This document shows positions 19,849 through 52,749 of a stretch of 52,749 nucleotides of DNA, in pieces. Every line of letters begins with the position of its first letter. The stretch's first letter is position 1. The notes under the pieces are model-generated. The model worked only from the letters and a program-made list of their open reading frames with translations. It had not been told where the DNA came from and ran no database searches. Made by a program: the position numbers and the translations under genes. The DNA is taken from NCBI GenBank assembly GCA_032718475.1, contig JAUCBJ010004461.1, positions 1 through 52,749 on the forward strand, given 5' to 3'. The DNA is from Nemertoderma westbladi (taxonomy: Eukaryota > Animalia > Xenacoelomorpha).

Positions 19849-19856
19849 TATTTATA
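19849..19856 (-). promoter_or_regulatory. TATA box (TATAAATA) of the CUB gene
   Basis: Consensus TATA box about 85 nt upstream of the ATG on the same strand. Confidence 0.6.
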
Positions 19857-22225: not shown

Positions 22226-22239
22226 ACTATATGCTTGAG

Positions 22240-23070: not shown

Positions 23071-24261
23071 TGTTCGCGCTTTCAGACCTTTAGCAGTTTA
23101 ACCTGCCAAATTTAGATGTCTTCTAGATTATAAATCGACTTTAACCTATGACGAGTATTTGATACACTACATTAGCCGAAGCCAGTCTATGCGCGACCAT
23201 TCACCCGCTGGATATACCCGGGAGACTGGATTCGGAAGCTTTGACCTTATTGCGGTGTAGACCTACTGTATTATTCGACTGATTGTTAATATATAATCTC
23301 TGACCAATATTATTCACTTTCGGGAAATATTAACAGTTCCTTTAGGACGTGGCGCTCTAAATATGTAAACAGAGTTATGACTTATACTAGACACAACAGG
23401 ATGGCTATGGATTCACGTATAAAGCGCATTCTTTAGGAGATGCTTCGTTACCTGTCACAGTCATGCACACTACCGCACAATGCTGCACACCGATCTGCCG
23501 ACCTTCACTAATTTTAGTCACATATAAAGAGAACAGCAACAAACACATGTAGTGCCTATGAAATAGCATTAGAATCACTCCAAAACCAATGTAATGTAAG
23601 TCGCAATTGTTATATGTAACCGGTCTCTCTTACCTTCAGTATATCAAGAAGATTGAGGGTTTTATAATAATTTATCGATATTATCCAATATAATAATATT
23701 CCATCAACTGATATAATTAATAACCGACAGTCAATAGCAGTAAAAATGCGGTGCGTAGTTGACAATATGATTTGACACACTGACTGGCCTTGTGTCGTGT
23801 GGCGATATGATGTGGTAACAGTTATACGTTTCTATGACTAAAGCCTACTAATGTTTGGATAAAGTCTGAAACCACAGAAATTCTGAAAGCCGGTCTTCTG
23901 GCATCAGGAAAAAAGGTCAACATAAACAGTAATGCATTGCGCGATTTCCCGGAGGTTTCTGTACAAATAACAGGAGAATCGCTGTGATTGGTTGTCCGAA
24001 CAAAGAGACAAAGGAAAAGCTCCACCTGTACAGATCAGCTGTTAGCCGTCGTCATAGTAACTACACTGTGTCAAGAGGATTTTAGCGTATTGCGACATAA
24101 AATTGCTAGTTATGTCCGCTAAAGTACACATACAGCAGAAATGGCTTTTTATGTCCATTAAAACACCGGTACAGTAAGGAAACGGCTTTTTATGTCCGTT
24201 AAACCAACTACAGAGTACTTTGCGGGAAAAATAACCAGCTAATTCCGCAAAAGCTTTTACA
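23071..24261 (-). repeat. 3' LTR
   Basis: TGTTCGCGC...CTTTTACA; about 12 differences from 40276-41465 by eye; ~42-bp internal tandem repeat at about 24143-24210. Confidence 0.95.
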
Positions 24262-24269
24262 CCGCTCCC
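24262..24269 (-). other. Polypurine tract (GGGAGCGG|TGT)
   Basis: Purine-rich tract abutting the 3' LTR; identical in the second copy at 51682-51689. Confidence 0.75.
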
Positions 24270-24339
24270 ATAAAATGGGATTTAATTCTATAAAATATAA
24301 AAAATCACAGTTTCTAAAATATAAAAATACTCTAAACAG

Positions 24340-26330
24340 TTAGTCTTTCTTACGCGGACGGCGTTTACGCAGTTTTTTGAGGCTAGTAAGAGTCCTTTTC
24401 TCTTTGGGGCGAGCCACTTTACTAGGAGGGCTATAACTCCTGGGCGAAGGGTGCAATACAATTGCATCAGAAGGTTTAGGATTACGATCGGTGTATCCGC
24501 CGGTCGAGGTACCTGGTTGATCGATATCAACTTCAGTGGAGCGAGGTCTAACGGCCTTTAGGGCGCGTCTTAGGACAGCAGCTCCTACTGGTCCATGACG
24601 AGTCGTCTAGACAATAGCGGTAGGTGGACCGTGAGTGGTGAGAAACTTCCTCGGTTTAATGGTTCTTTCCAGCTCGCGTTCTCTGGCTCGATATTCGTAG
24701 GGCCGTCAAGATACTTCCTGAAACTCAGGGTGAGAGTTGATAAATAAATCGCCATACTCAGGGTCTTGACGGATGAAATTGATCAAATGGTATGAATTAA
24801 TATCGTTAGGATTGACGTTCCTGAGATATTTTCGAACAAATTTGGTGGAAATATACTCACCAACACGCTTCATTAGTTCGTAACTCGGTGTGCGTGTTTT
24901 TTGTTCAACAGACGCGAATAGATAAGGATGGAACGCGTGAACTCCCTCGTAGGCGCGTCCAGGGTAATAGCGATGGCGTGACTCACAATGTAAATCCGCG
25001 TTCACTTCCCAAGCTCGGATGTAGCGCAGGGTAATCATCTCATCTACGCTTTCCAAATCCCGGTTAAAAGGGCAATTAAAACTGGCATGTCCTTTAAGTT
25101 GACAGTGGTGGCATTGAGTCATAAATTGGGGGCAGACTGCAAAAATGTGCGAGTTATTAAGTCTGCAATACGCACAATAGATCTCCATCATCGGTTGTTC
25201 ATGGAAATAGGAGCAGGGTACGTCTGAGTCCATAGGGGTGAAATGATCTCTCGATGAGCATAATCGGCAACGTTTTCGAGAAACATAGTTGGCATGCCGA
25301 TAATCGTATGCGGTGAGACATTGTGGACCTTGATACCATTCCAATACGTAGTCGTTATCGCTGCTCCGGGGCGCTGTAGGCTGAATCTCCTCAGATTCTA
25401 AGCATGTTGGTTCGTCTTCCAATTGCATAGATGAGATAGGTGCGGCTGTCTCCGCAAGCGAACCCACTGTCTGAACTTCCACGACAGAATAACCCGTGGG
25501 TATTCGAGGTCTTTGTATAACAGATGAATGCAAGTTCTGTATACAAACGTCCTTGAAAAGGGCAAATCCCGCGCTGTCTAACTTCTCTGCAGCTGAGTCT
25601 CTTAGGCTGAGTTTGGTCAGAGCGCGGTCCTTGAACTGACTATCAACATTACGGAACGGAGTCAGAAAGCGCCTGAAACATTCGAAGCGGATGAATTTAT
25701 TGAGTTCATCTAGCTTGGCGAGTTTGGTTCCAAGTATTAAGGGATGGGCGCGTATGGTACGACTGCACACATCGGCTAGCCAACCGGCAAGTGCGGCGTT
25801 TTCAAAGATCGTGTATATAGCTAAGGAGGGACGAAGTGGAACACTCATAAAGCTATACACGGCGCCAGGTGCGGTCAATGGTCCGTCAAAATATAATCGA
25901 GAATAATGATCTCCATATACTTGTTGGTAATTGATAGGATTGCCAACCTTGAAATTCCATCCGTATTCTTGAAAGGCAAGATGTCCGATGGAGGTTCGTT
26001 GTACTTTAGTAATGCCGCTAGGTGTATTTGCATACATAGTGCGGAAGAAACCTCGGCCTTCTGCCCAGGGAGCAATCAGCTGAGTATCGATGAAAGGGTA
26101 TGGAATGTTCTCCATGTTCCCGTTGTATGCCTAACATGTTTTCCGACAGTGATGGTAGAGCAGAGGAAAAACTATTTCGCATTCTGAAATATTCAGAAAT
26201 ACGATCTCAGTAGGAGGATTCAAACGTTCGAAGACTATCTCCAAATGAATTTATCCCCAGTGATTAGGGGGGTGAACAACCAGATTTATGACACATAATG
26301 GTACCAGTTGTTCACAAACTATCCGCGTGC
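24340..26330 (-). pseudogene. Accessory ORF of the LTR element: triple CCHC Zn-knuckle protein with basic C-terminus (core ORF 24706-26115, extended through premature stops)
   Basis: Knuckles CX2CX4HX9C, CX2CX5HX4C, CX2CX4HX4C. The stop at 24706 (TGA) and a downstream TAG are CGA and CAG in copy 2. Read-through ends KKLRKRRPRKKD* at 24340. The upstream limit is uncertain. Confidence 0.75.
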
Positions 26331-26899
26331 CCTTTCAGTCCTTGTATCACGGTTGTGGACTTAAGGAAATTATTGATGGTTGATTTTCTAATCAACAACG
26401 AGAGGGTGGAAGTTGATATCATAAATATCAACAGAATGTGACATGGATATGAGGTGCGGACACCAATATAAGCATCCACATTAATAGTAAGGGATGGGAG
26501 GTTTAGTAAGAGACAGTATGATCAATACCATGATACGGCAATGATTGGTCGATCGTTTCCCAAAGCTCCGAGCGCATTGGGAAGAGAAGGTGGGACGAAA
26601 TATGTTGTATTTTCAATAGCGATGTATAGAGGGATAAGGGTAGTAAAGAGGAGGAAGGATATATGGTAGTATCTGTAAGATACCACGATGGACTTGTTTT
26701 CTGTTATGTCACCATTTATTCTTGCTCTTCAATTGCGACACTGATCACAATAATTCAGGAAGATGATGAAATAAGAGAAAATTACAGCCTCCCGAAGGAG
26801 ACCGCCCGCGAGCACCCGTGCCCCGGGGAAAATTATTCACATTATGGATCCTGGACATCAATGTATGTCTTTTCTCCAGTAGTTCTCCTCTACTTGTCT

Positions 26900-27298
26900 T
26901 TACAAACCTTCTTCCTCATTCCATCTTTCGAGTCGGTTTCGAATATAATTCTCGTGTTCTATTCTCAGTTTATCGTTCCGACTCCGCTGGGTATGATATT
27001 TAAATAAAACCATTTCCCTTTCGGTGTCTACATCGTCCGTATCGTGTAAATCGATAGGATGGCCAGTAGTTAAGAAGTCCATATACGTACCATTACGATG
27101 CGTATAGCGAGCGGTGAATTTTCTATAGTCCAATTCACGCGTAAGTTGCTCCTGGGACATTGGCGGTTCGATATAACGACCATCGTCCTCCGTAGTAGTT
27201 GGACCAGCGTCGCCGCGAATCAAGCTATCGACAAACGCTTGTAAAGGTAGAGTATATCGCTCCCTGATACCAAGATCATCTTCTATCAACTCAGTCAT
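26900..27298 (-). CDS. 132-aa acidic ORF of unknown function in the 3' internal region of the LTR element
   Basis: ATG-initiated, protein-like composition, same strand as the Zn-knuckle ORF; no recognisable motif. Confidence 0.4.
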   Translation of the reverse strand: MTELIEDDLGIRERYTLPLQAFVDSLIRGDAGPTTTEDDGRYIEPPMSQEQLTRELDYRKFTARYTHRNGTYMDFLTTGHPIDLHDTDDVDTEREMVLFKYHTQRSRNDKLRIEHENYIRNRLERWNEEEGL

Positions 27299-28121
27299 AT
27301 CTGCTACATGAGTTTATCAATATTATAATGAGTTTATATTTAGGCTAGCGGGCGTCGCTGCCTACCCCTCTCTGCCCCCGGACAGTGCAAGATCCTCAGC
27401 GCCGATGTACCGTCGTCGCTGTGCTTTCGCCAACGTAGTAGCTACACAACGACAACGATAACCGGCACAAGTCACTCCACTGTCCGTCCCAAAGGCTTAG
27501 ATTTACTTCAGGTTCTTGCTGCAGAGTTAGGGCTACTTTCACAATTGCGACTCGCTACTGTAAACACACTTTAGTAGTAACATTCACCTATAAACGCACA
27601 AAGTCCACACAACTGTCACAAATTGTACACATTCGGGCCATTTGTCCGTTAGTCAAGTGCCTTCCAGAATGCCATGTTATTATTATGTATCCTTGGATAC
27701 TAGCAGTGTGCTATTTATTCCCTATACTATTCAATGGGGTAAGCTTTCTATTGTTCTTTTATCTCACTTCTAATTCTAGCGTGGTTGTTGCTATGGTGAC
27801 ATTATGGAAAGCTAGCGGTAGAATTAGGGTAATTCTCATGCATACAGATCTGGGATGCTATTTAATAGTAATTCTTTAATTGTCAATATTCCTCTTTATA
27901 CATGATTTTATGAATTTTGTCGGCTATTGACTATATATTGGAGGTTCTCGCACACTAATATACTTAATAGGGTGAATCTCCGCTCCCATGATCTATTAAT
28001 TAATGGAATTTTGGGAATGTTATAAATTGTACAAAAATGACAATTTATCAAATTCATTAAAATATGAATTTAAATTTATTCCCGTAAATTTTATTATTTA
28101 ATATTATAATAGACATAATTT

Positions 28122-28385
28122 TATTCCAGAACATGTCTGGGGACTGGGATCCTTAATTCTAGGAAATTGGTCTTTTAAATATATCGGTGGGTGCTACGAT
28201 ATCTTAATAGACTAGAATTTTATAGGATCTAAAATTCGACAGATTTTGTAAATATTAATAATTAATATTTAGGATGGGCACCAGTTTATTCCAGAACTTG
28301 TCTGGGGACGTTAACCACTGATTCTAGAATTTTGTCTTTCAAGTATATCGGTGGGTGCCGCGATATCTTAATCGACTAGAATTGC
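28122..28385. repeat. Two diverged ~100-bp direct repeats (~165-bp period)
   Basis: ttattccagaac.tgtctggggac...tatcggtgggtgc..cgatatcttaat.gactagaatt occurs at about 28122 and 28287. Confidence 0.8.
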
Positions 28386-28430
28386 AGATGGTCAAAGGGT
28401 TTAACAGATTTATTTTGCGTTATACGCTAC

Positions 28431-28914
28431 TGTTAAAGGGACATCACGCTACTATATGTATTATTTAATATACGGTATGAGAGCAATATCGCACGAAGCA
28501 ATGTCAGTGAGAAGAGGCAAGTCGTTTCCAAGGTCTACCCAGAGCTTGGTTTAGCCGAGACACGAGGATCTGAATTTTGCATTCCTAATACTCTGCTTAC
28601 CAATAATACTTAAATATAGTAGGAGCTTTATTGTACTTTAATAAGTACGGATATTTCATCTTACTGTAGTTACGTATTTGTAATGTAATACGGACAGTAA
28701 GGAAAGAGAAAAAGAATTATTTCTCGCCGTCACTGTAAATATATAATATATAAGTAATTAAGTAATAAACACTAATATATATTGCACTAATCTACTAAAT
28801 AACCGCTAAAATAACATTCTACTAAATAAAATTAAAGAAAACGATTATAATAAAATTACAAAATAATACATACATAAATATAAAATAATAAGAATATAAA
28901 ATAGTATAGTCACA
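28431..28914 (-). other. Unpaired internal LTR-like segment (TGT...AACA) directly after pol
   Basis: PPT-like GGAGTGGGTG (28915-28924) just after the pol stop, then TGTGA...AATAAA (28627-28632)...TTTAACA. No second copy found in the window. Confidence 0.4.
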
Positions 28915-28932
28915 CACCCACTCCAGACGTTG

Positions 28933-31900
28933 TTAAGTTGGGGAGTCCCTAGATGTTTGTTGGATTAGGGAGGTGGTCGTGGGAAGAGTATCTTGCCTTC
29001 CATAGTTTCCGGAGAGTTCTCTGTCTCTTTCCAGTAAACATAAACGACCAACTGGGCGATTGAGCTGCTGTGTCTCGAAGACAATTCCCGGTTTCTTAAA
29101 GTTACGTCGCATGACGATGAGTTCTACCGATCGCACCAAACCGTCATCCGAGATATGAGTCTCGATGATACAACCTGTCTGCCACCGCTTACGTGGAAGA
29201 TCGGAATCCACAATAAGGACCATGTCTCCAGCGCTGACGTTTTCTTGCTGCGCAAACCACTTAGTTCGAAGTTGTAGCGTGGGCAGATAATGTTTTTCGA
29301 AATGGTCAGCGAAACGACGGGATAACAACTGCATAAGTTGCCAAGTTTGCCGGCAGTATTCGTCTCCGTCTGTGATTTCCGATCGTGGGAGCATGGCTAC
29401 CGGTTTCTTCAGTAGGAAGTGCGCGGGTGTTAGCGCTTCCAGGGAATCGGGACTCGATGAGACTGGCATAAGCGGTCTCTCGTTGAGATAGGCGGAGATT
29501 TCCTCCATTAACGTCCGCAAAAGTTCGTCGGTGAGATACGCGCGGCACGGCACTATGAAGTGAAATGCGGTCTTCACGCTCCTGATTAATCTCTCCCAAC
29601 TTCCTCCCCACCAAGGGGCGTCGGCGGCATTGAAGGTCCAGCTAGACACTGTTACCCTTAGCTGATCGTCCACCTGTCTTTGGTTCCAATCTTTGACGTA
29701 AGCTTTGATTTCATTGTTGGCACCAATGAAGTTCGTTCCCTTATCAGATCTCATCGTGTTACTAGTTCCAAAGCGAGCGATCTGTCGTTGTAAGCTCAAT
29801 AGGAAGCTGTTGGTAGATAAATCGTTCACCATATCGAGATGGATAGCTCTACAAGTCATACAAACAAAGATGACACACCATCTCTTGACTATAGTCCTAG
29901 CACGATATACTTCAATAGGGCCAAATAAATCTACACCGGTATTAGTAAAGGGTGGTTCATAGAAGCTTACTCGTTCCCTAGGTAATTCTGCCTCTCGCTG
30001 TGTTAAAGGCCTACTGAATGCTTTCCTACAGGGTATGCAGTTCCTAAGAACTTGGTTCAGAGCTCTACGGGGTTTATAAAAATAATAGCGAGTTCGAATT
30101 TCGCTAAGAACTCGTTCTCTACCAGCATGATAAAGTTTGCCAACGTATCAACCCATCTATCATTGTGCTAGGGAAACGATCCCTTAAGCGCATCTGTGGA
30201 TTTCTCAACAACAGGAAATACTTATCGGAATCCTCATAGCATTGCAGGAGTCTCAGCATCTGCTTGTTGGTTTCTTCATGCTCCTGATAACTTATCTTCT
30301 CCTTCAGAAACCTGTCGGATATCTTATATTTGGGAAGATCTTTAACAACATGGACCTGCACAGATGTCAGTGGAGAGGTATCACTATTAGTCTTCGCCCT
30401 GGAGTAATGATGATGAAAACATCGTTTTAAATATGTAACGGCCTTACAGAGCCGGTTCCAGGAACTGTAGTGATATATCGCTCTCTGCAGGAGAGGTGAG
30501 AGTCCTTGCGAGACGTCTGGTATTCCAGATTTCCAATCCCTCTCTCTGATTTCCACAACAGACTTATTTGTGGCTGTGGGTTTCGGATCCAAAGCGTCGT
30601 CTCCGGAAGTGTGTAGTACAGACAGATCTACCACGGGTTTAAATAACTTCGATTTACTCGCCTGCGTTTTAGGTTTGACTTTCTCCGCTCCCTTGGCCTG
30701 TCTAATCTCTGTCGTAGTAAGATGAGGAGGCCATTCATCCTCTTCCTTGCTTAGGAAGTCGGGTCCACCTAACCAGTCTGGAGTATCTATCAGTTCTTGT
30801 GGAGTTGCTCCCCTGGAGGCGATGTCTGCTGGATTAATCGTTCCGGGGCAATGTCTCCATTGATCCATCTTCGTGCGACTAAGTATAATGGCTACTCTGT
30901 TGGTAACGAAGACGCTGAACTGACAGACTTCATTGGTTATATACTCCAACATGAGTAAAGCATCAGTCCAATAGACAGTTTTCTCCAGTGGATAGTCGAT
31001 CTGTTCTGTTACATTCCGGCCTATAGCTGTAGTGTATAGAGCCGCTTTTAACTCCGCTCGAGGAACTTTCACCTTGTTGTTTATCAATGCCTTAGAGGTA
31101 ACCAAGGCGACTTTGATTCCATCCGGAGTTTCCACTCTCAGGTAGGCTACTATACCTATTCCCATATCGCTGGCGTTTCCAAACACATGGAGTTGATAGG
31201 AATACGTAGGGAGAACATGACCAAAATATGAACGGGAAATTATAAAGTTCTCGATGGCTGGTAGAGAATCTTCCCATTTCATCCACTTCTTTAATAATTC
31301 TCCCTTAAGTGGATCGTCCCATGAGTGGTTTTCAAGCCACATTTGTTGTACTAAACTCCGAGCAATCAATATAACTGGGCTAATGAATCCCAATGGATCG
31401 AAATAAGTGCTCAGGATGTTTAGTCCGAACTGGATTATCTCGCTGTTTTAGCTGGAAAAACAGGATATCTCTCTCTGTGTCCCATTTCAAACCAAGTGTC
31501 TTGGTCTCTGGAAGATCATCTTTGATTAGGTCTAGGTCTTTCGCTCCTCGATCTTCTACCGGGATCGATTCCAGAAACTCACGGGAGTTGCTGGTGAATT
31601 TAGTTAATCGAAATCCACCTTTTTTTAAGCACTCTACCGTTCCTTTGGCGACATCAATGGCTTCTTCCACAGATGGAAGGGACTTTAGATTGTCGTCCAT
31701 GTATATATCTCGTTTGATGTTGTCGATCACCTCTTTTGAGAAGGCGTCCCGGTTGTCATCAGCAGTGGTGCGCACCACTGAGCAGGCGTTTGAAGGGCTT
31801 GAGATGATCCCAAAAGCCTGGATGGTCATCCAATACTCCACCGGTTTCTGGTTGAGGTCTCCTTCAGGCCACCACAGAAATCGTAGGCTGTCTCGATCCC

Positions 31901-34900
31901 TATCCAGCGCCTTGACTTGTAAGAACATGCCTTCTATATCGGAGGCGAAACTGGTAACAACTCGGAATTAAGGGATTGGCCCATGTAGAGGGCGGAGCCG
32001 TCGAATACTACTCGTACCTCATGAGGTTTACCGGGTTTGGGAATGTAATGATGTGTTAAATAGTACGTTCTTTCAGTTAGGGGTGTTCCTTCCGGTACTC
32101 GCTCCGCATATCCCTTATTAATAAATTTCTTCAACTGAGTCTGATACATTTCTTTAGCTGAAGCATTTGCCGTAAGGCGTCGATGTAGTTGAGCAATTCT
32201 TTTTTCCGCCAAGGGTCGGTTGTTTATGAACTTTGGTTCTCGCTTTCGGAATGGGAGACCGATCTCATATCTACCTTGATCTTTAAGAAAACGTGTAGTT
32301 GTCTCCTGGATCTGCTTGGCTCTTTCTTCTTCTACCGATAGGGCCTTATCGTAGGAATTGGGCTCTACATCCTCTTGAGTAAAGAATCGTACGGCGTGTT
32401 CATCTCGAGTTTTCGTGTTATATCTCTCTATTACTTCATTCAGTTTGTCGTTATAGTCGACTCGTTCTGATGGACTAATGACTTGACATAAGTTTACTTG
32501 GTTTTGCCAAGTCTCGTTTTCCGTAAGGATATCGATGTTATTCTCCTCGTCGAAGAGCTGGTGGATATTGTCATTATCTGAGGAGTATGGTATTCCCTCA
32601 GTTGGGTCGTCAACTTCACTGCTCTCCACTTCCCATTCACTTAATTGATATACCTGTTCTTTTGGTAATCTTTCCATAAGAGTTCGACGGGAAGGGCCAG
32701 TAAAGTACCAACCTACTCTAGTTCTTCCCGCATAGACTTGTAATGGTTGCGGTTGAGCAGGCCGTTTCTCCAATGTCTCAAGCGCTTCATGCGCATTTTG
32801 GCCGATGAGTATTTGCACTCCAGGGTAATCTGTGTTGAATCTAGGTATATTAAGCTGCTGGGTGGAATCGTCCTCATCCCAGTTATAAGGTTCTACTTGG
32901 CTGGTAGCGAAGTTCTTTATCGCCACCATCTTTACTGATCTTATGCTATGTTCTCCTAGTTCATCCTGGGTGGTGGACAACGCACCTACATAATAATCCG
33001 CTATTACTGTAGATTTCCAAAGCTGCATAATTCCTGACATGTTTAACTTAGTTCGGAACTTGGGTTGTCCAGCAAAGATGTCTTCGGCTAGTTCTTTGTC
33101 GATGAATGTTCCTGTGCTACCGGAGTCAAGGAGGGCGTTCACTATATAACTCCTTTTAGGTCCGTGGACCCTTAACTGCACTACGGGAAATTCACGGATT
33201 CTTACATTGGAAGTTGGTGCTTTCCAAGATGGTTGTCGGTCAGAAGTAGTTAGGGTGAGCTCGCAGTCTGTGTCTTTTTCATACGTAAGTGCTCGATACA
33301 CTGCAGTATTTATCATGTAACAGGATTCATCTTCGTCGGAGAATTCGTCCGTATAGAATCCTTCCATCTCAGAACTTTGGTCAGTGTCGTTCACATCACT
33401 GAATTGGACATGTAGTTCTGAATCACTTACCTGACTCGGGCTGTTTCGTTCGAATTCAGTGTGCAACAAGATATGATGTTTTGCGCCGCACTTCGCACAC
33501 CTTGCATCGGAGTAACAGGTTCGCCTTTGGTGTCCTTGTCTGAGGCAATTATAACACAACCGCTTATCCCACATGACTTCCCGTCTATCCTTTAATGATT
33601 TCTTTAGGAATTCATCACACACATTCAAACGGTGGGTCCCGTCGCATAGCGCACATTTCGGTTTGATGTTACTTACCTTATTTTGAGTAACATTGTGCAC
33701 ACTCGTTCTTTCTTCGGGCTTTCTTAACTGAATTCTCTTAGGAGACGTAGGAGGAGTTTTTCTTACCTGTTCTCTCCTGTCATTGGTTCGAGACTTGAAT
33801 TTACTTACGTCTTTAGGCGTTTTATTGACATAATAAGATCTTTCAGTGTCTTTCCCGCTGTCTTCTTCTTGAGAAGCCTGGCTTTCGCCGTCGTCGGTAT
33901 AACACACTGGTGTTACTTTTCTCCTAGAAACGGGTTTCTCACTTACCTTGTTTTCCGGTGTCTTCTCTCTGGACTGCTTAGGAGCTGTAATTTCACTTCT
34001 CCATCTAAGAATGACATGAGATCAGCCATGGTAGGGTCTCGTTGTTGTTGTTCCATCATATATAACACTTTCTTATCCCAGCGTGTACCTACTCCACCCT
34101 TCGGTAAAGTAGAGGCCACGGCTCCAATAACCATAGAACTTTGATATTCATGAGACTTACCTAGCCAATCTAATTGTCTACAGATCTCCTGAATCTCATC
34201 GGAAAACTCTATAATCCCGCTGCTAATGAATTTTTGGGGCGCTACCAATTTTGCATACAAATACCTAGCTATGTTATTCCTATTACCATACCTGATGTTT
34301 AGTGTATCCCAAACTTGTCTTAATCCATCTGGATGTCCAATAAACTTTAACGCCATTAACTTGGGAGATCCTTCCAAGCACTCGATGAGGAATCTAAGTT
34401 TCTCTCCGTTAGATAGCACGGAGTTCTGTATGTTATCTTTGTAATATTCATTAAAAGGTAACCATTTCATCTCATCTCCATTGAACTTGACGATCTCTCC
34501 CACCTTTACCGCTTGACGGGCTTCGGTTCTAGCCATTTGACGCGTAAAACTTTCTTGGGCCATCATGTTATTTAATATCGAGTTATCGGTATATAAATTT
34601 ATCGGATTATTATCAAGTCTATATGGAATATCATTGTCAACAGGTTTATAATTACCCTTAATAGGGTTTACTATAGGAGTTTCCACTTCACTAGCAGTAT
34701 AGATGCGGGTAGTCTCCACACCTTGCGCATGAAATACTTCAAACCTAACAGGTTGACACATTGTAACAGGGGGTGGTGGTATACCCTTTTGTGTATTTAC
34801 TAATTTATCGCGTTCTAATGCGATACTCTGCTGCACTTCTTGCAACTCTAACCTACTTTCCCTTACTGTTCCTTTAAACTGATGAACAGTCTCCTGCATC

Positions 34901-35700
34901 TGCCCGAGCAGGAGATTCATCCCCCGCCGCCCCTCATCCACCCACTCGACCGCCGGAGCGGGAGCCGCCAACGTAGTAGCGGGTAGACGAGGGACAACGG
35001 GCGACAAATCATTGATGTTTCGCTCGGAGTCCAGGACTGGAACTGTCACAGGGGTTGTTTTGTGGGGCACAGGTAGTTTAGTACTGTGCAAAGGGAATTT
35101 AGAGGTAGGTTCTGGGAGCACAGATGTCTCTATCACCGAAGGGGTGATTTCAAGAACAGGCCTAATTATTTCAGGCTCATCTACTATAGTAGGGAGTCTT
35201 TTTATTTCAATTATTTGGTCTGTGGGTTCTGTACTACCTAAGTCTGTGTTAGTTAGTTGCCTTCTAACAGCTGGGGGCAAATCAGGCAATTTCTGACGGT
35301 GGGACATTCTTCTACGTCTGCTTAGACGAGATCTATTTCCTCCGCCTTCAGGATCGGTGGTATCGCCTTCATCAGATGATGTATCGCTTGCGTCCTTCTG
35401 GGCTCCTCCCCGAGGCGCACCCACGAGGCGGATGCTGTCCCACTACCCTTGGGGCCAGTCCGACTCCGTTTTTATCAGACCGGGCCGGAGGGTAGCCCGA
35501 TGCTTCCCGGGTTCAATTTTCAATCCCCCGATCACACCGGCACAGCTCGTCGCACATGTAGCCAGATGGTCGGCTACTGTCAACTTACTGTGGCCTGACT
35601 GTACATTGAGCCAACTCAGAGAGTCAACCGGCAGGTGGACCAGTCGATAGCGATTGAGCATCAAGGTCGCCCTTGAGCCAAACCGACGGTCTTGTCCCAA
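28933..35700 (-). pseudogene. gag-pol: Bel/Pao gag-pol polyprotein, disrupted
   Basis: DUF1759-like gag (KFNGDEMKW...EKLRFL...YGN), three Bel-type knuckles (CALCDGTH, CYNCLRQGH, CAKCGAKHHILLH), protease LLDSGS, RT (VRVVFDGSA, LRFLWW, YMDD), RNase H (LHVFGNAS, YWTDA, NPADIASRG), integrase (HAG..C..C, GVDLFGP, SDKGTNF, GGSWER), DUF5641-like tail. Frameshifts or deletions near 33990, 31955, 31410 and 30140; in-frame stop at 35443. Confidence 0.93.
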
Positions 35701-36540
35701 GTGGGCTTGCGCTACCCAACATGGAATATTGACACGTTTTCACCCGCCTCACTGGCAGTATTGAGGGGAAGTTGGTTCCGCAAACAATACTGACTAGCTC
35801 GAAAGCTAGGAACAAGTAACCACTTACCAGTCACTGTACACGTGTACTCAACAGATGTTCACAATATCAAGTACACTACGGTAAACACAAAATCTGACAC
35901 ATACCATGCACACACAGAGGACATAATCGGGAAAGACCAAATCGGTGACAAAATCAGAGGGGACAAAATTGTATCGACTGTTAAAAGAGTCGAGAGTACC
36001 TTATTTTGCCTTCAGGGCAAAATAACTTTGTGTGCACAAAGTATGCTGGGGCGCAGTAAAGATATGGTCCTACTAATACCAGCGGCGTCTGGACCAACCG
36101 GCAAGGGTTCCCATACTCACTCGCAGTGGCCATACATACACTCACGTATACCACGTACCCACAGCAACTGAAGCTCAAGCAAACAGCCACTGATCGTCCA
36201 CACACAAACCACAGATTCCAGAGTATCATTCACTCGGACCACACTACAACACCAACCCCTCCTTGCAGCCAATATTCCGGGTGCTACCTCCATTCCAATA
36301 GTAGTACCAACAGAATCATCAGAAATCTGCCCATTCCGATGCAACACCTCCATTCCAATAGTGCTACCCTGGGAAAAGACACGTTTTGGCAACCGATCGG
36401 AGACAGTAAAGAGTCTGGTCAACTCATACATACCAAACATAGACCTACCACATAGACCACATAAACCACAGATCACACTAAGCCACCACCCCTACTGTGT
36501 ACAGGACTGGCAGTACGGCAACAGGCCGACTAGACGGTAC

Positions 36541-36550
36541 CACGGCACCA
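36541..36550 (-). other. tRNA-His-type PBS-like 10-mer (AACA|TGGTGCCGTG) in the element interior
   Basis: Complementary to the tRNA-His 3' end CACGGCACCA and preceded by an LTR-end-like AACA; the match is only 10 nt. Confidence 0.45.
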
Positions 36551-36683
36551 TGTTGATTCATGGTTCGTAAGACACGAGGGCCTTCAGTAACTCCCTTGCA
36601 CTATAAAGACGATTGAACGTGCCCCCAGACCCTCACGAGTCCGCCGCCGCCTGTTAGGGACCCCCTATAGAGACCTCACCTCT

Positions 36684-38090
36684 TTAGGATCCCTGTCTTT
36701 TGGGAGTAGATCGATTCATCATCTGCATATTACTAGCTGTTAACTGTTTATTTATGCAGTCTTGATTCTCATGAATATTTTCCAACTCTAGTTGGGTGGT
36801 CTCTTCAGATGCACTTCGTTCTGCTTCTGCCATTGCTATTTTTCTTTCCGCTTCTGCCGCTGCCTCTGCCGCCTTTCTTTCCGCTTCTGCCGCTGCCATT
36901 GCCGCTGCTGCTGTCTTTCTGTCTTCTATACGTTTTTTCTTGACTTGTTCTTCTTGGACCCTAGCGATGCGGAGCCTTTCATCAAATTTAGCTTGGTTCG
37001 CAGCTATCATATCCGCATCGATTGCGTCCAACACAAGCTTGGCTCCTTCACTATTAGGGCTAAGTCCAGACAGCCGTCTCCTCAACTCTTCGTCACCTAC
37101 AAAGCGTTGATAGTCTGACAGATAGATGTCAATAGCATCCCTCTTATGCGGTTTCTCTGCTGTCGCTTCGCTTTCCACTTGGGAAAAGGTAGCGTCTGTT
37201 GATTCTCCATGGATTGAGCGCTCAGCCAGCTGAGATTTCCACTGGGCAGTTCCTTGAACTTGGAGACTCACTCGCTGAAACCAAGTCTTTACGGCAACTT
37301 GCAACGACGTGTCTTGTCTTCTTTTCGAAGCCTCCTCAAAGGCCGATAAGATTAGTCTGATTCGTAGAATTCTTTTTCTAACTTGATAAAGCAGCTCTGC
37401 CTGCTCTTGAGGTCCTTGGGGTTGTCGAAACAGTTGTTCCTTTAATCGCTCCATAGAGCTGAAGAATCCCTGTACCAATCGTGCTGCTGACCTCTTCCAC
37501 ACAGCTGGATCGCTGGTTTCTTTTGTCACTCCCATCCTGTGTATGTCTTCCCAGGCAGCTTCCAATAAGTCAAACGGGAGTCCGGGTCCAGGGAAGTTCC
37601 ATTGCGACTCGACAATAGACTTCAGTTCTTCACTTGTGCATCCCGCATAACTATCCTTGGTCGATCGCTTACTTCTCGCCCAATCAATTTGGTGTTCCTC
37701 CACCGCAATCAATACCCTAGTGAGTACGGCTGCAGGAAGGATGAGAAGGGGATCCGAATAAACCGCATCTGCCATCTTTGCTCCGCGCTCGGATGTCAGC
37801 TCTACAGTATCCGCACTACTGGAGCTGTCGGGCCGCTGAGAAATAAGTTCTCGGCTCGAGTGTTGCTGCTGTTCCGCTGCTTCTTGGTCCCGCTTGACCT
37901 GAGCTCGAGTGCCTATGATAGACCTACGGTATTGGACTAGCCTAGGGTCTGATATTACTACTGGAGGGATGATCTTTCTTACAGTAGGAGGTGAATTGAA
38001 CTTCGGTCTCATACGTTCCACACTCCTGTCTGGGTCACAGATGGTTGTATCTATGAGGCTGTCTGACAGGTTTTGCTTTGTGTCAGACAT
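36684..38090 (-). CDS. 468-aa upstream ORF with coiled-coil/Ala-Glu-rich C-terminal part (probable gag N-terminus or separate ORF0)
   Basis: Intact ATG-initiated ORF; AAAAMAAAEAERKAAEAAAEAERK helix resembles Bel/Pao gag N-terminal low-complexity regions. Confidence 0.65.
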   Translation of the reverse strand: MSDTKQNLSDSLIDTTICDPDRSVERMRPKFNSPPTVRKIIPPVVISDPRLVQYRRSIIGTRAQVKRDQEAAEQQQHSSRELISQRPDSSSSADTVELTSERGAKMADAVYSDPLLILPAAVLTRVLIAVEEHQIDWARSKRSTKDSYAGCTSEELKSIVESQWNFPGPGLPFDLLEAAWEDIHRMGVTKETSDPAVWKRSAARLVQGFFSSMERLKEQLFRQPQGPQEQAELLYQVRKRILRIRLILSAFEEASKRRQDTSLQVAVKTWFQRVSLQVQGTAQWKSQLAERSIHGESTDATFSQVESEATAEKPHKRDAIDIYLSDYQRFVGDEELRRRLSGLSPNSEGAKLVLDAIDADMIAANQAKFDERLRIARVQEEQVKKKRIEDRKTAAAAMAAAEAERKAAEAAAEAERKIAMAEAERSASEETTQLELENIHENQDCINKQLTASNMQMMNRSTPKRQGS

Positions 38091-38227
38091 GTTTGTTTGT
38101 ACAGTTGAATGCCTACTGCTATATTACAATTAAAGCAAGTCTAGTAATTCAGTATCAACTGTTAGCCTAGTAATTAATTACCGATACTGCTACTCAGTGT
38201 AGCGTGATATATATATATAATATATTA

Positions 38228-38478
38228 GAATACCAGTATGCTTATAGTATATATATAAGTATTATTACAGACTAGGTTTGTCACAGAATACTGGTATATA
38301 ATTTCAGCACAAATATATATAAATATATAATAGGCCTATCGTGAATACCGGTATACAGCTTACACTTATAGTATATATAAGTATAATTATGGACTAGAAT
38401 TAATTACAGAATACCGGTATAATTTCAGCCTAAATTTATAGAAATAAATATGATAAGCCTATTGTAAATACCGGTATG
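38228..38478. repeat. ~120-bp diverged tandem duplication with recurring AATACCGGTAT motif
   Basis: Two alignable AT-rich units in the 5' leader. Confidence 0.65.
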
Positions 38479-39429
38479 TCAATTATTTTAGAATAATTTA
38501 ATTTCTGAATTTTAGGGGTTACTTGGTTACTTTACCTTACTTTATTACCGTTATTTAAGCAGTAGTTCAACTGACATTAAGACCTAATTGATGTATGACA
38601 GGCCTACTATTTTATAAATCGGTTTGAGTTGATTTATAATATATATACCCGTTTAATGGGTTTTGTCAATGTTTGAAATAAATGTTATTATTTCTGGGAA
38701 GGAGTCACTACAGAGAAGCTGTGTGCTCTCAGTGAAGTGCTACTTGTTGGACACTAAAACAAATAATTCTAATTTACCTAAGTTACTTAATACTACAAAT
38801 TACGTACAATTCGGGGTGAGATTACAATCTCTAAATAAACACAAAAATTACACGTACGAATTTTTAGGGTAATTTTACAAGAAGTCTACAAACCAGCCTA
38901 ACAAAGGGTTAGAATATCTGGTTATTACAACGGACAGGGTACTACGGTATTTGAAAATAACAAAGCAGTAGTAAATATACTACGTTGTCCAGATAGGAAA
39001 AATACCACCGTCTGACGACTTATAGCCGTATCGCTATAAGTACTACGTTATGTATCACGGAGTGTCCCTACCTAGAAGTTAATTACCGCGGTCTACTAGA
39101 ACGAACGTGTCTATTAACCACTTTACAACACAAATATTCTGGCTACACACTAATTACCTTCGGAAAGTATTGTACACTAAACCCTAAATTAGGTACAAGT
39201 ACTTATACAACAAATAATCAGCAGTTAGAAATACTTGTACAGCTAAAAGAACCACGGTATCTGCTGGAGTGACCGGGGCACAAAATCACCAGTCTTTACC
39301 TACGCCAAGCAGCCCTGATGTAGTACCGGGGTTAATTTAACTATAACGGTATGTATAACAAGCACAATTACTGTAGGAATAAACTTGGGGTTATGAATGT
39401 TGCGAATAATCGCATAAACTCTGAATAAT

Positions 39430-40002
39430 AAATATTACGCTACGCGTACAGACTACTCAAACAAAATATAGACCAAATGCTGGCAGACTACTATCAAGCC
39501 CAAACAAACTACAGTATATGCAGACTCCGAAATGGTTAGTTAGTATGCGTTCTAACCGAGTAGTACGACTTATTCTTTCAGGGGGATTGACCTAACAACA
39601 CTGGAAGCCCCTACATTCCTAACTAGTACTTTATCGGACATACATTCTACACACACCACAATCTCTTCAGACCTAACAACAGCCAGACAACAATCCAGCC
39701 TACAAATTATCTAAATAAGAAATATTACGCTACCCGTACAGACTACACAAACAAAATACAGACCAAACGCTGGCAGACTACTATCAAGCCTAAACAAACT
39801 ACAATATAGGCAGACTCCGAAATGGTTAGTTAGTATGCGTTCTAACCGAGTAGTACGACTTATTCTTTCGAGGGGATTTACCTCACAGCACTGGAAGCCC
39901 CTACGTTCCTAACTGGTACTTTATCGGACATACACTCTACACACACCGCAATCTCTTCAGACCTAACAACAGCCAGACAACAATCCAGCCTACAAATTAT
40001 CT
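39430..40002. repeat. 290-bp tandem duplication in the 5' leader
   Basis: aatattacgctac...tacaaattatct at 39431-39712 and 39721-40002. Confidence 0.9.
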
Positions 40003-40263
40003 GTACAATCTGAGCAGGCTTACACGCCTTCTGCTCAATATTGGCCTACAAATAAATAAAACTGACAGAAATAAGTAAAATCCCAATAAAAACCAGGCGT
40101 ACCCGATTACTTATTAAGACCTACCGGTATATAATTATAAAAATCGAATAATACTGCTGTACCTGTACTGCTGTAAGTACCGGTCCGGGTGGTTAGGTAG
40201 TTAGGCCTACTGGGTACCGGTTGACCAGTACTTCAGCTTTATTGCCTACTGCAATACAGAAGC

Positions 40264-40275
40264 TATAACTGTTAC
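40264..40275 (-). other. Non-tRNA primer-binding site (GTAACAGTTATA), complementary to LTR positions 41020-41031
   Basis: Abuts the 5' LTR end, lacks TGG, and forms a perfect 12-bp inverted repeat with a sequence inside the LTR. Confidence 0.7.
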
Positions 40276-41465
40276 TGTTCGCGCTTTCAGACCTTTAGCA
40301 GTTTAACCTGCCAAATTTAGATGTCTTCTAGATTATAAATCGACTTTAGCCTATGACGAGTATTTGATACACTACATTAGCCGAAGCCAGTCTATGCGCG
40401 ACCATTCACCCGCTGGATATACCCGGGAGACTGGATTCGGAAGCTTTGACCTTATTGCGGTGTAGGCCTACTGTATTATTCGACTGATTGTTAATATATA
40501 ATCTCTGACCAATATTATTCACTTTCGGGAAATATTAACAGTTCCTTTAGGACGTGGCGCTCTAAATATGTAAACAGAGTTATGACTTATACTAGACACA
40601 ACGGGATGGCTATGGATTCACGTATAAAGCGCATTCTTTAGGTGATGCTTTGTTACCTGTCACAGTCATGCACACTACCGCACAATGCTGCACACCGATC
40701 TGCCGACCTTCACTAATTTTGGTCACATATAAAGAGAACAGCAACAAACACATGTAGTGCCTATGAAATAGCATTAGAATCACTCCAAAACCAATGTAAT
40801 GTAAGTCGCAATTGTTATATGTAACCGGTCTCTCTTACCTTCAGTATATCAAGAAGATTGAGGGTTTTATAATTATTTATCGATATTATCCAATATAATA
40901 ATATTCCATCAACTGATATAATTAATAACCGACAGACAATAGCAGTAAAAATGCGTTGCGTAGTTGACAATATGATTTGACACACTGACTGGACTTGTGT
41001 CGTGTGGCGATATGATGTGGTAACAGTTATACGTTTCTATGACTAAAGCCTACTAATGTTTGGATAAAGTCTGAAACCACAGAAATTCTGAAAGCCGGTC
41101 TTCTGGCATCAGGAAAAAAGGTCAACATAAACAGTAATGCATTGCGCGATTTCCCGGAGGTTTCTGTACAAATAACAGGAGAATCGCTGTGATTGGTTGT
41201 CCGAACAAAGAGACAAAGGAAAAGCTCCACGTGTACAGATCAGCTGTTAGCCGTCGTCATAGTAACTACACTGTGTCAAGAGGATTTTAGCGTATTGCGA
41301 CATAAAATTGCTAGTTATGTCCGCTAAAGTACACATACAGCAGAAATGGCTTTTTTGTCCATTAAAACACCGGTACAGTAAGGAAACGGCTTTTTATGTC
41401 CGTTAAACCAACTACAGAGTACTTTGCGGGAAAAATAACCAGCTAATTCCGCAAAAGCTTTTACA
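40276..41465 (-). repeat. 5' LTR
   Basis: About 99% identical to 23071-24261; followed by TSD GGGGT. Confidence 0.95.
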
Positions 41466-42086
41466 GGGGTAGAACGTTAAGATCATACCTACTTAGAGGC
41501 CATAAACCGAAAGACCCACCCAGAGGTATAGTGTATCAGATACCGTGTTGCTGTGGCAACATATATGTAGGCCAAACCTTATACAGTCTTGATGTCCGTC
41601 TGACCCAGCATCAGGGCGATGTTAAACACCGTAGGCCCAACGCATCCGAGTTGTCGGGCCATCATGTAGCTACTGGACACATTCCATTATGGGATAGGGC
41701 AACAGTGATAGACTTGCACGGTAGGCTAATATTAGAGAGTATGTATATTCAATCATTGGGACCCCGGGCAGTTAACAAGAGATTATCCACAGACGTAGAT
41801 CATTTAAGTATAGCAGTGTTGGAAAGCGGGGGGTTCCTGAAAATTAAATCATTTTGTGCGTATAGTAATTTAGTAGTTAGGTAGTTAGGTACCTTTGTAC
41901 TGTTAAAAACATTTCATAAATAGGTAGCTGTAATAATGCATTAATTGTGTTTACATTCAGTTGATTATTGACAATGTGGGCCCTTAGCCCTTGAAATATA
42001 TTTATTTTATTATATTAAAACAGTAAATAAAACTTAATTCTTATTGATATTGCCTTACCATCCTCAATCGACTATTAACTGATTAT
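41466..42086 (+). mobile_element. Penelope-like element, GIY-YIG endonuclease and 3' pLTR (right part)
   Basis: GIVYQIPCCCGNIYVGQT...RLTQH...HHVATGH...RLILESMYI. Candidate 9-bp TSD GGATAGGGT at 22405-22413 and 42087-42095. Confidence 0.88.
41960..42005 (+). ncRNA. Degenerate minimal hammerhead ribozyme-like motif in the Penelope pLTR
   Basis: TTGACAA (consensus CTGANGA), then GGGC/GCCC stem, then GAAA, at the expected pLTR position; the core is mutated. Confidence 0.3.
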
Positions 42087-42156: not shown

Positions 42157-42829
42157 AAGTTATATGATTTCGGAGCGGATTAAACCATAATGGCGGGATG
42201 GGACTTAAATATGTATTTTTAATTATTTGATTAAATTATTTTACGTGGTGAAAGGTGTATATATAGTAGATAATAAGTAAATAATAAGAATTGACAATTA
42301 GTTTCTCTCTTGTAATTCCTCATAAAAAATATATTAAAATAAGCGCAGATAATTATATTCTGTGACAACATAACAATTTTCGTCTATATTATAATATTTT
42401 ATTTATAATAGCTAGGGCCTTGAAAAGGTTAAGACAGTCATACAATTTTGCATTGAACAATAAACTATGTAGGTCACCATCCACCAGTTAGGGGGGAAAA
42501 CTGGACGCAATAAAAATTCATCCCCCTCCAGGGGAAAGTTTACGTGAATAACAGCAGATTACTCTCAAAAATAAAACTGCAACCTGTTTAGTGTTTAGTT
42601 TATTGTTTTGGTTAAAATAACATGCCATTGAAACCTGCTCCTATCCCTAAATTGAGAATTTAATATTGAGGCGGGATATTAATTCGCCAAGATGGCGAAT
42701 TCATCCAATTCATCCAGTACCCCCCCCCCCCCCCCCCCCCCCCCCTTTCTCTCATCCACAGTTTGAATTATAACATCTGGAGAAAACCAGTCACTCAACC
42801 CTTGGTGGGATAAATATTTCTCCATTTGA

Positions 42830-45495
42830 CGCAACACCGCCGCGGCCGCTATGAGGGAGGTGAATACCGCGGCCGCTCCTAAAGCCGCAGGCCATCGCTA
42901 ACTATATAGGTTAACTTGGGATTCTGGGGGACTTTTCGATGAAGGAACTGACCAAATTTTTTTATTTTCTCACCAGGGGAGCGGCTCGGAATTCTAAGAT
43001 ATTAGCAACTCTAACATTATTAAATCTAACACTTCGACGGACAAGGCGGACAAAAAACCGTCATTTTTTCGACAATTTTAAAATTTTTTTGAAAGGCGCT
43101 CTACAGTGGCTCGAAAAAACCCTAGGTTATTGCTTAGCCGACGCCGGGATACGATAGAAGGGATTAATTAGTGAATTCGTTTTTTTTTTCAAAAAAGATT
43201 ACCACGCCTTTTTTCCGAAAATGTCCGTCAAAGTTGAAAAAACGGACAAAATGACTTTGCGGGATCCGCTATAACTCGGCTAATATTAATCGTACGGGGA
43301 CGAAAGTAACGCGGTTGGAAAGGGGAAGAGTGGTACTACCTTCGTATCGAATGGGGGTAAGATATTTATTAAAATTTCGGGTGGAAAAAGGGGCTGTAAA
43401 TTTGTACGTTTTTGTCCGTCTTTTTTGGAACAGTTATTTCCGAAATGTTTAATTCGACAACGCGGGTAGGAATCCACTAATTCTTTTATGAAACTCGTAG
43501 AAGACCATTGGGGCTACGTTCCTATCGAATGGGGGTACAAAAAATATGTCGGCAATAGGGGCCAAAAAGGGCCAGAATTTGTAAAGTAGTTTTTATCGAA
43601 TAATTTTTTATTTTTAACTTTAGTTGGTTAAGGTACATTCTATACAGTCAATATCCATACGGGGAATTCAAATATGCTATCGGTTTTGCTCCAAGGATGA
43701 TATTAAAAAAATGAGGGCCAAAATTATAATTTCGCGCTTCAAACTTGCTTCGCGGGAAATCGTCTAGCTCGAAAACTACTTAACTTACGGGAGATTTGTT
43801 TACACAGACTTATAGTGCGTTAAATTATCTATCTAACAGCGTTAATCACAGCGCCGGAGGTATTATAAAACTGGAGCGGCAGGCGATCGTGTGAAATATA
43901 ATATTTATAAAAAGGGACGAAAAATTTTTTTTTTTAACAAATCGCTATTCCATTATAATTTAGCGTATTGCGCCAAAAGTACCTGTAAAAAGTATCAAAT
44001 TAACTCCGCTATCTTTTATCTTAACATATATAATTAAAATTACGAATTTTAAGGGTCGAAAAATATCGCGTTATTTTGGCCCTTTTTTTTAATTTTTTTT
44101 GGGGCCAAAAATAACCCCTTCTCAAAAGATTAAGAAAAAAATTACGGCAAAGAATATACCAATTTTATTGAATTTGGACCACCAGAACCGAAGTTAGAGC
44201 GATTTTAGTGAAAAAATAAAAATAATTTTTTTTGCAAAAAAATTAAGAATGGTCAGGTCAATATTGGATTTCGAACCCGCGAACTTAGGTTTCATTAACG
44301 TGATTGATAACCACTAGACTATGTGACCAAGAGAATTTGAAATTTTCGAGTGACTATTTTTAAACATCAATAACTTCGGTTCTACTGGGCCGTTTAATCT
44401 GAAACTTTTTTCATTGGATAGAGGATAGATTGTAGTGTGTGAAATAGGATAAAACTTGGGAAAAGACTTATGTGCACTTAGTGCAAAATGCACTTAAATA
44501 GTGAACATTTTTTCGATATTTCAAACACTATTATTTCCAGTTCTATTCATCGTAGAATGTTATTTTTTGGATTAAAATGTAGTTTGGAATGATTTCTAAC
44601 TATAATCGTAACATTTGTTTAACTTTTTATGTCTATAAAGTGACTTAAAATGTCCATGAATATGGTCCATAATCGCAAATCCAGATTTATTAAATTGGAT
44701 TTTTGACACTTTTAGCGACTGACACTTGATCATACACCATCGTAGATCGGTAGAGGATAAACATAAGTTTGTTAAATAAGAGCCACCATTACGATCTGCT
44801 AAAGTGCATTTGTACAAATATGTGTGCAAAAGTGCAAATTTTTTAATAAGGTCAAATTATATAGTATTGGGTTATTTTCTTTGCAGATACTTTATTTTCA
44901 TATTAATATGTTGTTTGAACCTTACTGAGCGCATTAGGGGATATGCGTACAAATAACCGGCCCTTATGAGGCTTCGATTGGGTAAATTAATAAAACATAA
45001 GGTTGTATAGTATAATATTCTAAAAACCAGTGTGATATTAAATGCACTTTAAATAATAAATAGAAATCAAATAACAATTGGACCACACAATTAAAACTCG
45101 CACAATTTTGTACTTATTATATCGCTTCAAATTAATTCAACAGTGGATATTTGGGGGAAGGGGGAAGTTACAGTGTGCATTCGGGGGAAGTTTGGTGAAC
45201 TGCATTTATGCAGTGAATCCAAACTTCCCCCTTTGATATATCATATACTTAAGACATGCTAGGGTGACGGGGAAATATTTGTTACTGTCACACTTTGCTT
45301 CCATTTATCCTATCCTTTATTATTACCCCAGTCAGATAAGAGATAATAAATCAGTAAAAACTAAACTAAACTGTCTTTCATGCAAACAAATTTCTAACTA
45401 AAGACGGGTGAATGACCATGACCATGGAAATAATTTTAAATATAATTGTATATCAACTATTTGGGGAGGCTTCCAAGTTAAACCCGAAAACAATT
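42830..45495 (-). mobile_element. Non-autonomous Helentron/HINE-like element (second copy about 45857-48525)
   Basis: Subterminal inverted 9-mer TTAACTTGG (42911-42919) / CCAAGTTAA (45473-45481), T-run at one end, GC palindromes GCGGCCGC x2 (42842, 42869) beyond the other repeat; non-coding; a diverged fragment also occurs at 5192-5268. Confidence 0.5.
44256..44328 (-). other. 73-nt tRNA-like module (A and B boxes) inside the repeat unit
   Basis: GGTCA..TAGTCTAGTGG...GGTTCGAAATCC..TGACC; acceptor ends pair but there is no proper anticodon stem. Confidence 0.55.
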
Positions 45496-47281: not shown

Positions 47282-47354
47282 GGTCAATATTGGATTTCAA
47301 ACCCGCGAACTTAGGTTTCATTAACGTGATTGATAACCACTAGACTATGTGACC
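47282..47354 (-). other. Second copy of the tRNA-like module (B-box mutated to GGTTTGAA)
   Basis: Duplicate of 44256-44328. Confidence 0.5.
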
Positions 47355-50492: not shown

Positions 50493-51681
50493 TGTTCGCG
50501 CTTTTAGACCTTTAGCAGTTTAACCTGCCAAATTTAGGTGCCTTGTCTTCTAGGTTATAAATCGACTTTAGCCTATAACAAGTATTTGATACACATAAAG
50601 TTACATTAGCCGAAGCCAGCCTATGCGCGATCATTCACCCACGGTTAAGGGAGACTGGATTCGGATGCTCTGACCTTATTGCGGTGTAGGCCTACTGTAC
50701 TATTCGATTGATCGTTAATATATAATCCCTGACAAATATTATTCACTTTCGGGAAATATTAACAGTTCCTTTAGGACGTGGCGCTCTAAGTATGTAAACA
50801 GAGTTATGACTTACACTAAACACAACGGGATGGCTTATGATTTACGTATAAGGCGCATTCTTTAGGAAATGCTTTGTTATCTATCACACTCATGCACACT
50901 ACCGCACACTGCTGCACACTGATCTGCCGACCTTCACTAATTTTAATCATATATAAGGAGAACAGCAACTGACACATGTAGGGTCTATGAAATAGCATTC
51001 AATTCACTCCACAACCACTATAATGTAAGTCGCAATTGCTATATGTAACCGGTCTCTCTAACCTTCAGTATATCAAGAAGATTGGGGTTTTATGATTATT
51101 TATCGATATTCTCCAAATATAACAATATTCCATCAACTGATACAATTAATAACCGACAGTAAATAGCAGTAAAATAATGCGGTGAAAGGTATGTATAGTA
51201 TTTGAGTCTGACCAGTTTGGTTTGTGATATGCTGTGATAACAGTTATACGTTTCTATGATCAAAGCCGTTCTAATGTTTGGCTAAAGTCTGAAACACAGA
51301 ATAATTCCACAGCCGGTGTTCTGGGCTCAGGAAAAAGGGTAAACAAAAACCATAATGCATTGCGCGATTTCCCGAAGGCTTCTGTGCAAATAAAATGAAA
51401 ATCGCTCTGATTGGTCGAGCCGAACAAAGAACAAAGAAAGCTCTACGTGGACATATCAGCTGATAGATGTCGTCATCTGAACTACACTGTATTAAGAGTA
51501 TTTTGGCGTATTGCGGCATAAAATTGCTTGTTATGTCCGCTAAAGTACACATACAGAAGAAATGGCTTTTTATGTCCACTAAAACACCTACACAGTAAGA
51601 AAACGGCTTTTTATGTCCGCTAAAACACCTACAGAGTACTTTGCGGGGAAAATAACAGCTAGATCCGCAAAAGCCTTTACA
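50493..51681 (-). repeat. 3' LTR of a second, diverged copy of the same LTR family
   Basis: TGTTCGCGC...CTTTACA, alignable throughout to 23071-24261 with clearly more divergence; adjoined by the same PPT and 3' ORF. Confidence 0.93.
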
Positions 51682-51759
51682 CCGCTCCCAGAAAATGGGA
51701 TTTAATTCTATAAAATATAAAAAATCACAGTTTCTAAAATATAAAAATAATCTAAACAG

Positions 51760-52614: not shown

Positions 52615-52749
52615 TGTTCGCGCTTTCAGACCTTTGGCAGTTTAACCCACCAAATTAAGATGTCTTCTAGATATTAAATCAGTTTTTAGTCTATGACAAG
52701 TATTTGATTCACTACACTAGTCGAAACCAATCCGTGCGCGACCATTCAC
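52615..52749 (-). repeat. End of a third LTR of the same family (runs off the window)
   Basis: TGTTCGCGCTTTCAGACC..., diverged from both other LTR types. Confidence 0.9.

Follow-up and report, generated by a model that had tools for sequence, protein, structure and literature searches.

A Bel/Pao-type retrotransposon of Nemertoderma westbladi that probably primes reverse transcription with its own RNA

Introduction

How does an LTR retrotransposon with Bel/Pao-type proteins begin minus-strand DNA synthesis when no tRNA primer-binding site (PBS) adjoins its 5' LTR? This question is raised by an element on contig JAUCBJ010004461.1 of Nemertoderma westbladi, of which we analyzed a stretch of 52,749 nucleotides, here called the window. 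A first-pass annotation, made from the sequence alone, proposed that the element primes with a segment of its own LTR. The ICTV profile of Belpaoviridae describes the family as tRNA-primed, with an 18-nt PBS for tRNA-Arg or tRNA-Gly and a length of 4.2-10 kb (PMC8742986).

Self-priming is described for Tf1. In this element, RNase H separates base 11 of the RNA from base 12, and the 11 bases at the start of the RNA anneal to the PBS (PMC7175516, PMC4600332); a preprint describes a three-duplex 'pretzel' around the PBS (bioRxiv 10.1101/2022.12.06.519325). Self-priming has also been predicted for Tcn1 and for the TAR lineage of plant Ty1/copia elements (Houba, Osr-1) (PMC6317226). The latter prediction lies outside Tf1/sushi, so that recurrence of the mechanism has already been proposed. 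For Bel/Pao, we found no published report of self-priming among titles and the beginnings of abstracts, with subscription journals and Repbase outside the scope of the search. In the main text of a Bel/Pao survey (PMC3118150) the words primer, PBS and tRNA do not occur, and passages of PMC3601003, PMC6934838, PMC8220671 and PMC3587641 gave nothing further on Bel/Pao priming.

Results

Self-comparison and alignment delimit a full-length Bel/Pao LTR retrotransposon at 23071..41465 on the minus strand. Its 5' LTR (40276..41465; 1190 bp, TGT...ACA) and 3' LTR (23071..24261) differ at 12 of 1191 aligned columns, about 99% likeness, and the target-site duplication ACCCC was aligned at 41466..41470 with its second copy at 23070-23066, also in minus-strand sense. 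The LTR pair with ACCCC on either flank therefore represents one intact insertion of 18,395 bp. A polypurine tract (PPT), GGGAGCGG (24262..24269, minus strand), directly precedes the 3' LTR; its spacer of 0 equals the offset of the putative PBS described below.

The gag-pol region (28933..35442, minus strand) consists of five frame pieces that contain DUF1759, a protease region, reverse transcriptase (RT, with YMDD), Peptidase_A17 in the RNase H region, and integrase with DUF5641. Pfam searches of the element identified DUF1759, Peptidase_A17, an integrase zinc finger and DUF5641, with PF03564, PF05380 and PF18701 above the cut-off. All 120 of 120 homologues among the matches listed carry PF05380 and are Bel/Pao-type, at about 26-43% identity. 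Frameshifts and stops break the coding region, and intact relatives map across several of its frames. Two further open reading frames lie on the same strand: one of 479 codons upstream of gag (36684..38123), without a Pfam match and without homologues, and a Cys/His-rich one of 474 codons after the integrase (24706..26130), for which the homologue search found no homologue of near length. The leader is 2.2 kb long and includes a 290-bp tandem duplication (39420-40002). Rfam gave 0 matches.

Gag, RT, RNase H and integrase of Bel/Pao type, the order PR-RT-RH-IN between LTRs, the presence of DUF1759, Peptidase_A17 and DUF5641, the 1.2-kb LTR, the short PPT and the 5-bp target-site duplication are all shared with Belpaoviridae. 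By contrast, the element has two extra open reading frames, lacks the 18-nt site for a tRNA 3' end (no TGG occurs within 47 nt of the LTR) and, at 18.4 kb, is nearly twice the upper size given by the ICTV. Judged by its proteins, this is a Bel/Pao variant, an atypical rather than a typical member. Pfam and the homologues thus confirm the Bel/Pao assignment of the first-pass annotation and exclude the chromovirus-type pol that it had named as contrary evidence; no chromo family was matched.

On the minus strand, the 5' LTR terminates at 40276 in GCGCGAACA, and GTAACAGTTATA comes next (40275-40264). We take these 12 nt (40264..40275) as a putative PBS, which has no TGG and abuts the LTR end at offset 0. 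The nearest TGG is at 40227, 48 nt into the leader. In the whole window, the exact complement of GTAACAGTTATA is present only at 41031-41020 in the 5' LTR and at 23826-23815 in the 3' LTR. The first copy, a putative self-primer core (41020..41031, minus strand; LTR nt 435-446), lies 744 nt upstream of the LTR end. As in Tf1/sushi elements, the PBS is complementary to a segment inside the LTR in register with the LTR end. A complement of at least 12 nt at offset 0 was obtained in 4 of 20,000 dinucleotide shuffles of the LTR (analytic value 2.0e-4), and in 17 of 20,000 when offsets of 0-5 were allowed; 2 of 15,983 other internal positions reached 12 nt. Both alignment and shuffles uphold the central observation of the first-pass annotation, an exact 12-nt LTR complement in register with the LTR boundary.

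Two arguments that had accompanied this observation fared less well. A diverged LTR (86%) of a deleted relative (50493..51681, minus strand), whose own PBS was lost in the deletion, does carry an 11/12 match to the core at 51248-51237, and its adjoining sequence is poorly conserved as described, with 48 of 74 nt after the match kept. We rejected this conservation as support because 60% of 12-nt LTR windows retain at least 11 identities. Likewise, pairing can be extended beyond the core, by about 6 bp after a small loop, between 41032..41045 (minus strand) and 40263-40250. This extension is equalled by 20-33% of random LTR pieces (p 0.20 and 0.33) and was rejected as support for this element. 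The same segment includes an Inr-like TTAGTC, a candidate start region.

Five sequencing runs contain the stretch or part of it. Family variants were taken from contigs of four runs aligned to 40228-40310, at places away from contig ends only, and their shares refer to summed depth, not copy number. Six substitutions were listed, five of them inside the 12-mer and one adjoining it. In runs X1 and X3, respectively, the plus strand differs in 90% and 85% of summed depth at 40268, in 71% and 69% at 40270, and in 44% and 33% at 40271. At 40275, two other letters make up more than 90% of summed depth, a share that may be inflated by the flanks of 3' and solo LTRs. No substitution was listed at the LTR end (40276-40288) in contigs of the four runs. 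None of the variants listed from these contigs creates a TGG at the junction, a case that would have spoken against self-priming.

A fixed tRNA primer would not explain a junction variable at 4 of 12 places, because dependence on a single host tRNA should preclude variation of this kind. If instead both primer and PBS are encoded by the element, the two could drift in step, and variation of the PBS would be accounted for. It counts against the self-priming reading that the more common PBS letters are mismatched with either LTR type of the window. At 40275, one of the two alternative letters is complementary to the base that is changed in the diverged LTR, and would pair with it if both are in phase.

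These data also bear on priming by a host RNA that lacks a CCA end, for example a 5' tRNA half as in some Copia elements; the match in the LTR would then be coincidental or derive from capture of the primer sequence. Copia lineages are known to use half-tRNAs as primers, and the 12-mer can be read as a stem followed by CU-GUU-A, which we take to resemble an Asn anticodon arm. However, four of the 12 PBS places differ at high share, and the conserved U33 would be lost through the change at 40270 (69-71% in X1 and X3). A host-RNA primer would, moreover, leave unexplained both the exact LTR complement and the family-specific complements of the relatives presented below. A tRNA search of the window found none. 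We consider priming by a host RNA highly unlikely.

The alignments contained further structural variants. Contigs in three runs leave the element at 40281 and go on with letters that could form a short hairpin with the PBS, and another subfamily, present in all four runs, keeps the PBS end and departs at 40267 into a different leader directly after it. A joint at 41340-41304, seen in three runs, combines a short duplicated stretch and an insert of 12 nt close to the beginning of the LTR and represents a U3 subfamily variant. Run X5, which we guess to be RNA, has no cover at 40964-41251; neither this nor depth differences between bins was counted as evidence.

Distant Bel/Pao relatives were collected by a profile scan of metagenome contigs, in which 78 loci were kept from 561 confirmed stretches. 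Thirteen loci were taken forward from self-alignment, in which the other 65 had no readable LTR end, and three of these (L019, L060 and L073) were dropped because their repeat ends were not LTR termini or a PPT was missing. Among the ten readable relatives, for two of which (L017 and L036) the LTR ends were corrected by hand, a TGG site is present only in L006, 5 nt past the LTR, and this locus lacks a self-complement (self-pairing p 0.93). The other nine, from eight families, have no TGG in the first 12 nt. Eight relatives have self-complements of 10-15 nt, each with p<=0.006 in the same search on shuffles. The complement is contiguous in L016 (11 nt) and L036 (12 nt) and split in L005 (15 nt), L011 (12 nt), L017 (11 nt), L026 (12 nt), L046 (11 nt) and L050 (10 nt), where a match arises only when a GT-AG interval of 67-186 nt within the LTR is taken out. 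L039 fails the acceptor filter (p 0.44-0.49) and by eye has the same split site as its sister L050. In the relatives with a split site, L039 included, splicing of the predicted LTR intron would build the primer.

The letters of the self-complements differ between all families, and the loop was tabulated at about 90-180 nt in the relatives versus 744 nt in the element of the window, a much greater length that counts against self-priming there. Extended pairing over the eight relatives was borderline (Fisher p 0.046 and 0.051), with none of the eight individually at or below 0.05. Exploratory junction scans of 32 loci gave further candidates of 11-13 nt (among them L007, L010, L023, L037, L040, L041 and L053), which had no calibrated control and were left uncounted. 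A search for a spliced primer in the window's element found none. A strong splice-donor-like sequence, GAAG|GTAAGA, is present inside its LTR downstream of the primer (40840-40832, near 40837); it is weakened in the diverged LTR and has no clear acceptor. The LTR-end pattern gave 0 matches in metagenome contigs, three IMG/VR matches to the junction pattern were rejected as chance since they had no BLAST similarity to the window, and protein scans of viral contigs found no relative.

In six of nine elements, including the one in the window, the PBS offset equals the spacer after the 8-nt PPT (permutation p 0.003, rho 0.82), a rule that was chosen after the data were seen. The gaps from PPT to LTR and from LTR to PBS match at 3/3, 2/2, 3/3, 4/4 and 0/0 nt, and at 0/0 nt in the window's element; the misses are 1/0, 4/2 and 4/3. 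Such symmetry would be expected if these sites set both ends of the linear cDNA.

Is the match then a product of chance, or a structural or regulatory pairing at a junction that is not a working PBS, with a different priming site (such as the TGG at 40227) or some other route of mobilization? Events at 2e-4 do occur when very many windows are screened, PBS letters unable to pair with this LTR account for most of the family depth, and this copy is broken in its coding region. Correct TG...CA ends require priming at the LTR end, whereas priming 48 nt away from it would give incorrect ones, and recurrence of the same register in eight families, where it tracks the PPT spacer, also argues against chance. 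A chance or purely structural match is accordingly improbable in our judgment.

The RT and RNase H of the element form long branches. In the larger trees, of which the RNase H one is a quick tree, the element is placed outside the branch with the nine self-pairing loci. In trees of 31 rows, joining it with the self-pairing relatives was not rejected (p-AU 0.70 for RT), and RNase H placed the element and these relatives on one side of a branch at 88; the trees were built without reference lineages. Because identity is 35-48% and the element is a long branch drawn outside their group in the larger trees, we regard the self-pairing relatives as analogues and not as close kin.

By analogy with Tf1, transcription of the element would start at or upstream of 41031, and the RNA would fold back so that 41031-41020 pairs with the PBS and closes a loop of about 744 nt. 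RNase H would cut 3' of the paired piece, after 41020, and provide a free 3' OH, from which RT would extend through U5 and the remainder of R. The poly(A) site would lie downstream of 41020, so that R stays available for strand transfer. The Tf1 primer is reportedly not removed, as the title of one study has it.

In RNA folds predicted to 40200, a start at 41044, at the Inr-like TTAGTC, gives the 12 pairs a probability of about 0.9; for starts at 41031 or 41100 the value drops to about 0.25, which counts against the reading. Across the assumed 5' ends, the predicted probability of pairing between core and PBS is 0.22-0.92. In the spliced relatives, only 4-9 primer bases are located in the first exon, and their transcripts therefore probably start further upstream than the core. 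The narrow start at 41030-41045 that had been proposed for the window's element is thus unneeded, and a start anywhere from 41031 upstream would suffice. A predicted U5 multibranch stem that abuts the PBS (40276..40409, minus strand) is a candidate counterpart of the flanking duplex of Tf1. It was predicted in all four LTR ends of the window, with 97% of cells paired, a measure of covariation not above the shuffle control (175/500). No LTR-downstream duplex with the post-PBS leader stood out in the predicted folds.

The primer could also be the 3' end of the RNA, made by cleavage or polyadenylation at about 41020 in the 3' LTR, with no RNase H cut near the 5' end. The 3' LTR carries the same 12-mer, as this reading requires, yet neither AATAAA nor a scanned variant is found within 300 nt upstream of 41020; the candidate poly(A) signals are at 41398 or, downstream of the 12-mer, at 40881, 40871 and 40477. 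We give very little weight to a primer formed in this way.

The remainder of the window includes other repeats and fragments. In the deleted relative (50493-52749), the LTR end at 52615 passes directly, through a GAACA microhomology, into the equivalent of about 25200; about 930 bp of 3' internal sequence and then the diverged LTR follow the joint, and its two LTRs are markedly unlike. A decayed fragment of a second LTR retrotransposon (952-4135, plus strand) contains DUF1759-like, aspartyl protease and RT sequences, with no LTR seen in the window, and a further RT fragment (6783-7700, plus strand) lies between arrays of 22-bp repeats. About 13 kb of satellite arrays with units of 22, 45, 42 and 24 bp (8576-22234) adjoin the 3' end of the element. 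A tandem duplication of about 3.03 kb with 98.7% identity spans 42801-48866, and an open frame of 366 codons with a cytochrome P450 match (48710-49810, minus strand; E 4.7e-48) lies on the strand of the diverged LTR, about 700 bp downstream of it.

Discussion

In the family of this element, minus-strand DNA synthesis is likely primed by a segment of the element's own RNA and not by a tRNA, a reading to which we assign a probability of about 0.8. The proposal of self-priming in a Bel/Pao element is sustained by the Bel/Pao-type pol, by the absence of TGG among the listed variants and by eight families with the same register, and loses the arguments from conservation in the diverged LTR and from extended pairing.

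Like Tf1, Tf2 and Tj1 and the Tf1/sushi chromoviruses including Tcn1 (Metaviridae), the element has a PBS that adjoins the LTR and is complementary to about 11-12 nt inside it, and has no tRNA site. Members of Tf1/sushi have a Ty3/gypsy chromovirus pol and an integrase chromodomain; the element, in contrast, has a Bel/Pao pol, no chromodomain that we could find, and a 744-nt loop. A transcription start that coincides with the primer and the full 'pretzel' belong to Tf1; in the element both would be putative. By analogy, then, and at the confidence just given for self-priming, it would work like Tf1 without being a member of Tf1/sushi. The TAR copia elements differ from it in both superfamily and host kingdom.

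With the relatives included, we see even odds that a large part of Bel/Pao, mostly from marine invertebrates, generally self-primes without tRNA. There, PBS and primer would drift together, the primer being either ready-made, as in the 18-kb lineage, or built by splicing, as in seven of nine relatives, and the giant with its 744-nt loop may have a separate origin. The relatives point to host splicing as a possible gate on the formation of the primer.

If this is true, the ICTV definition by tRNA priming would be wrong for much of Bel/Pao, and annotation tools for which a tRNA PBS is mandatory would overlook or misclassify such elements. The family of the window's element is high in copy number and its PBS is naturally variable, which makes a direct computational covariation test possible. 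Escape from tRNA fragments that target the PBS would be expected of self-priming elements, and self-priming would extend to all three LTR superfamilies, shown in Gypsy and predicted in both Copia and Bel/Pao.
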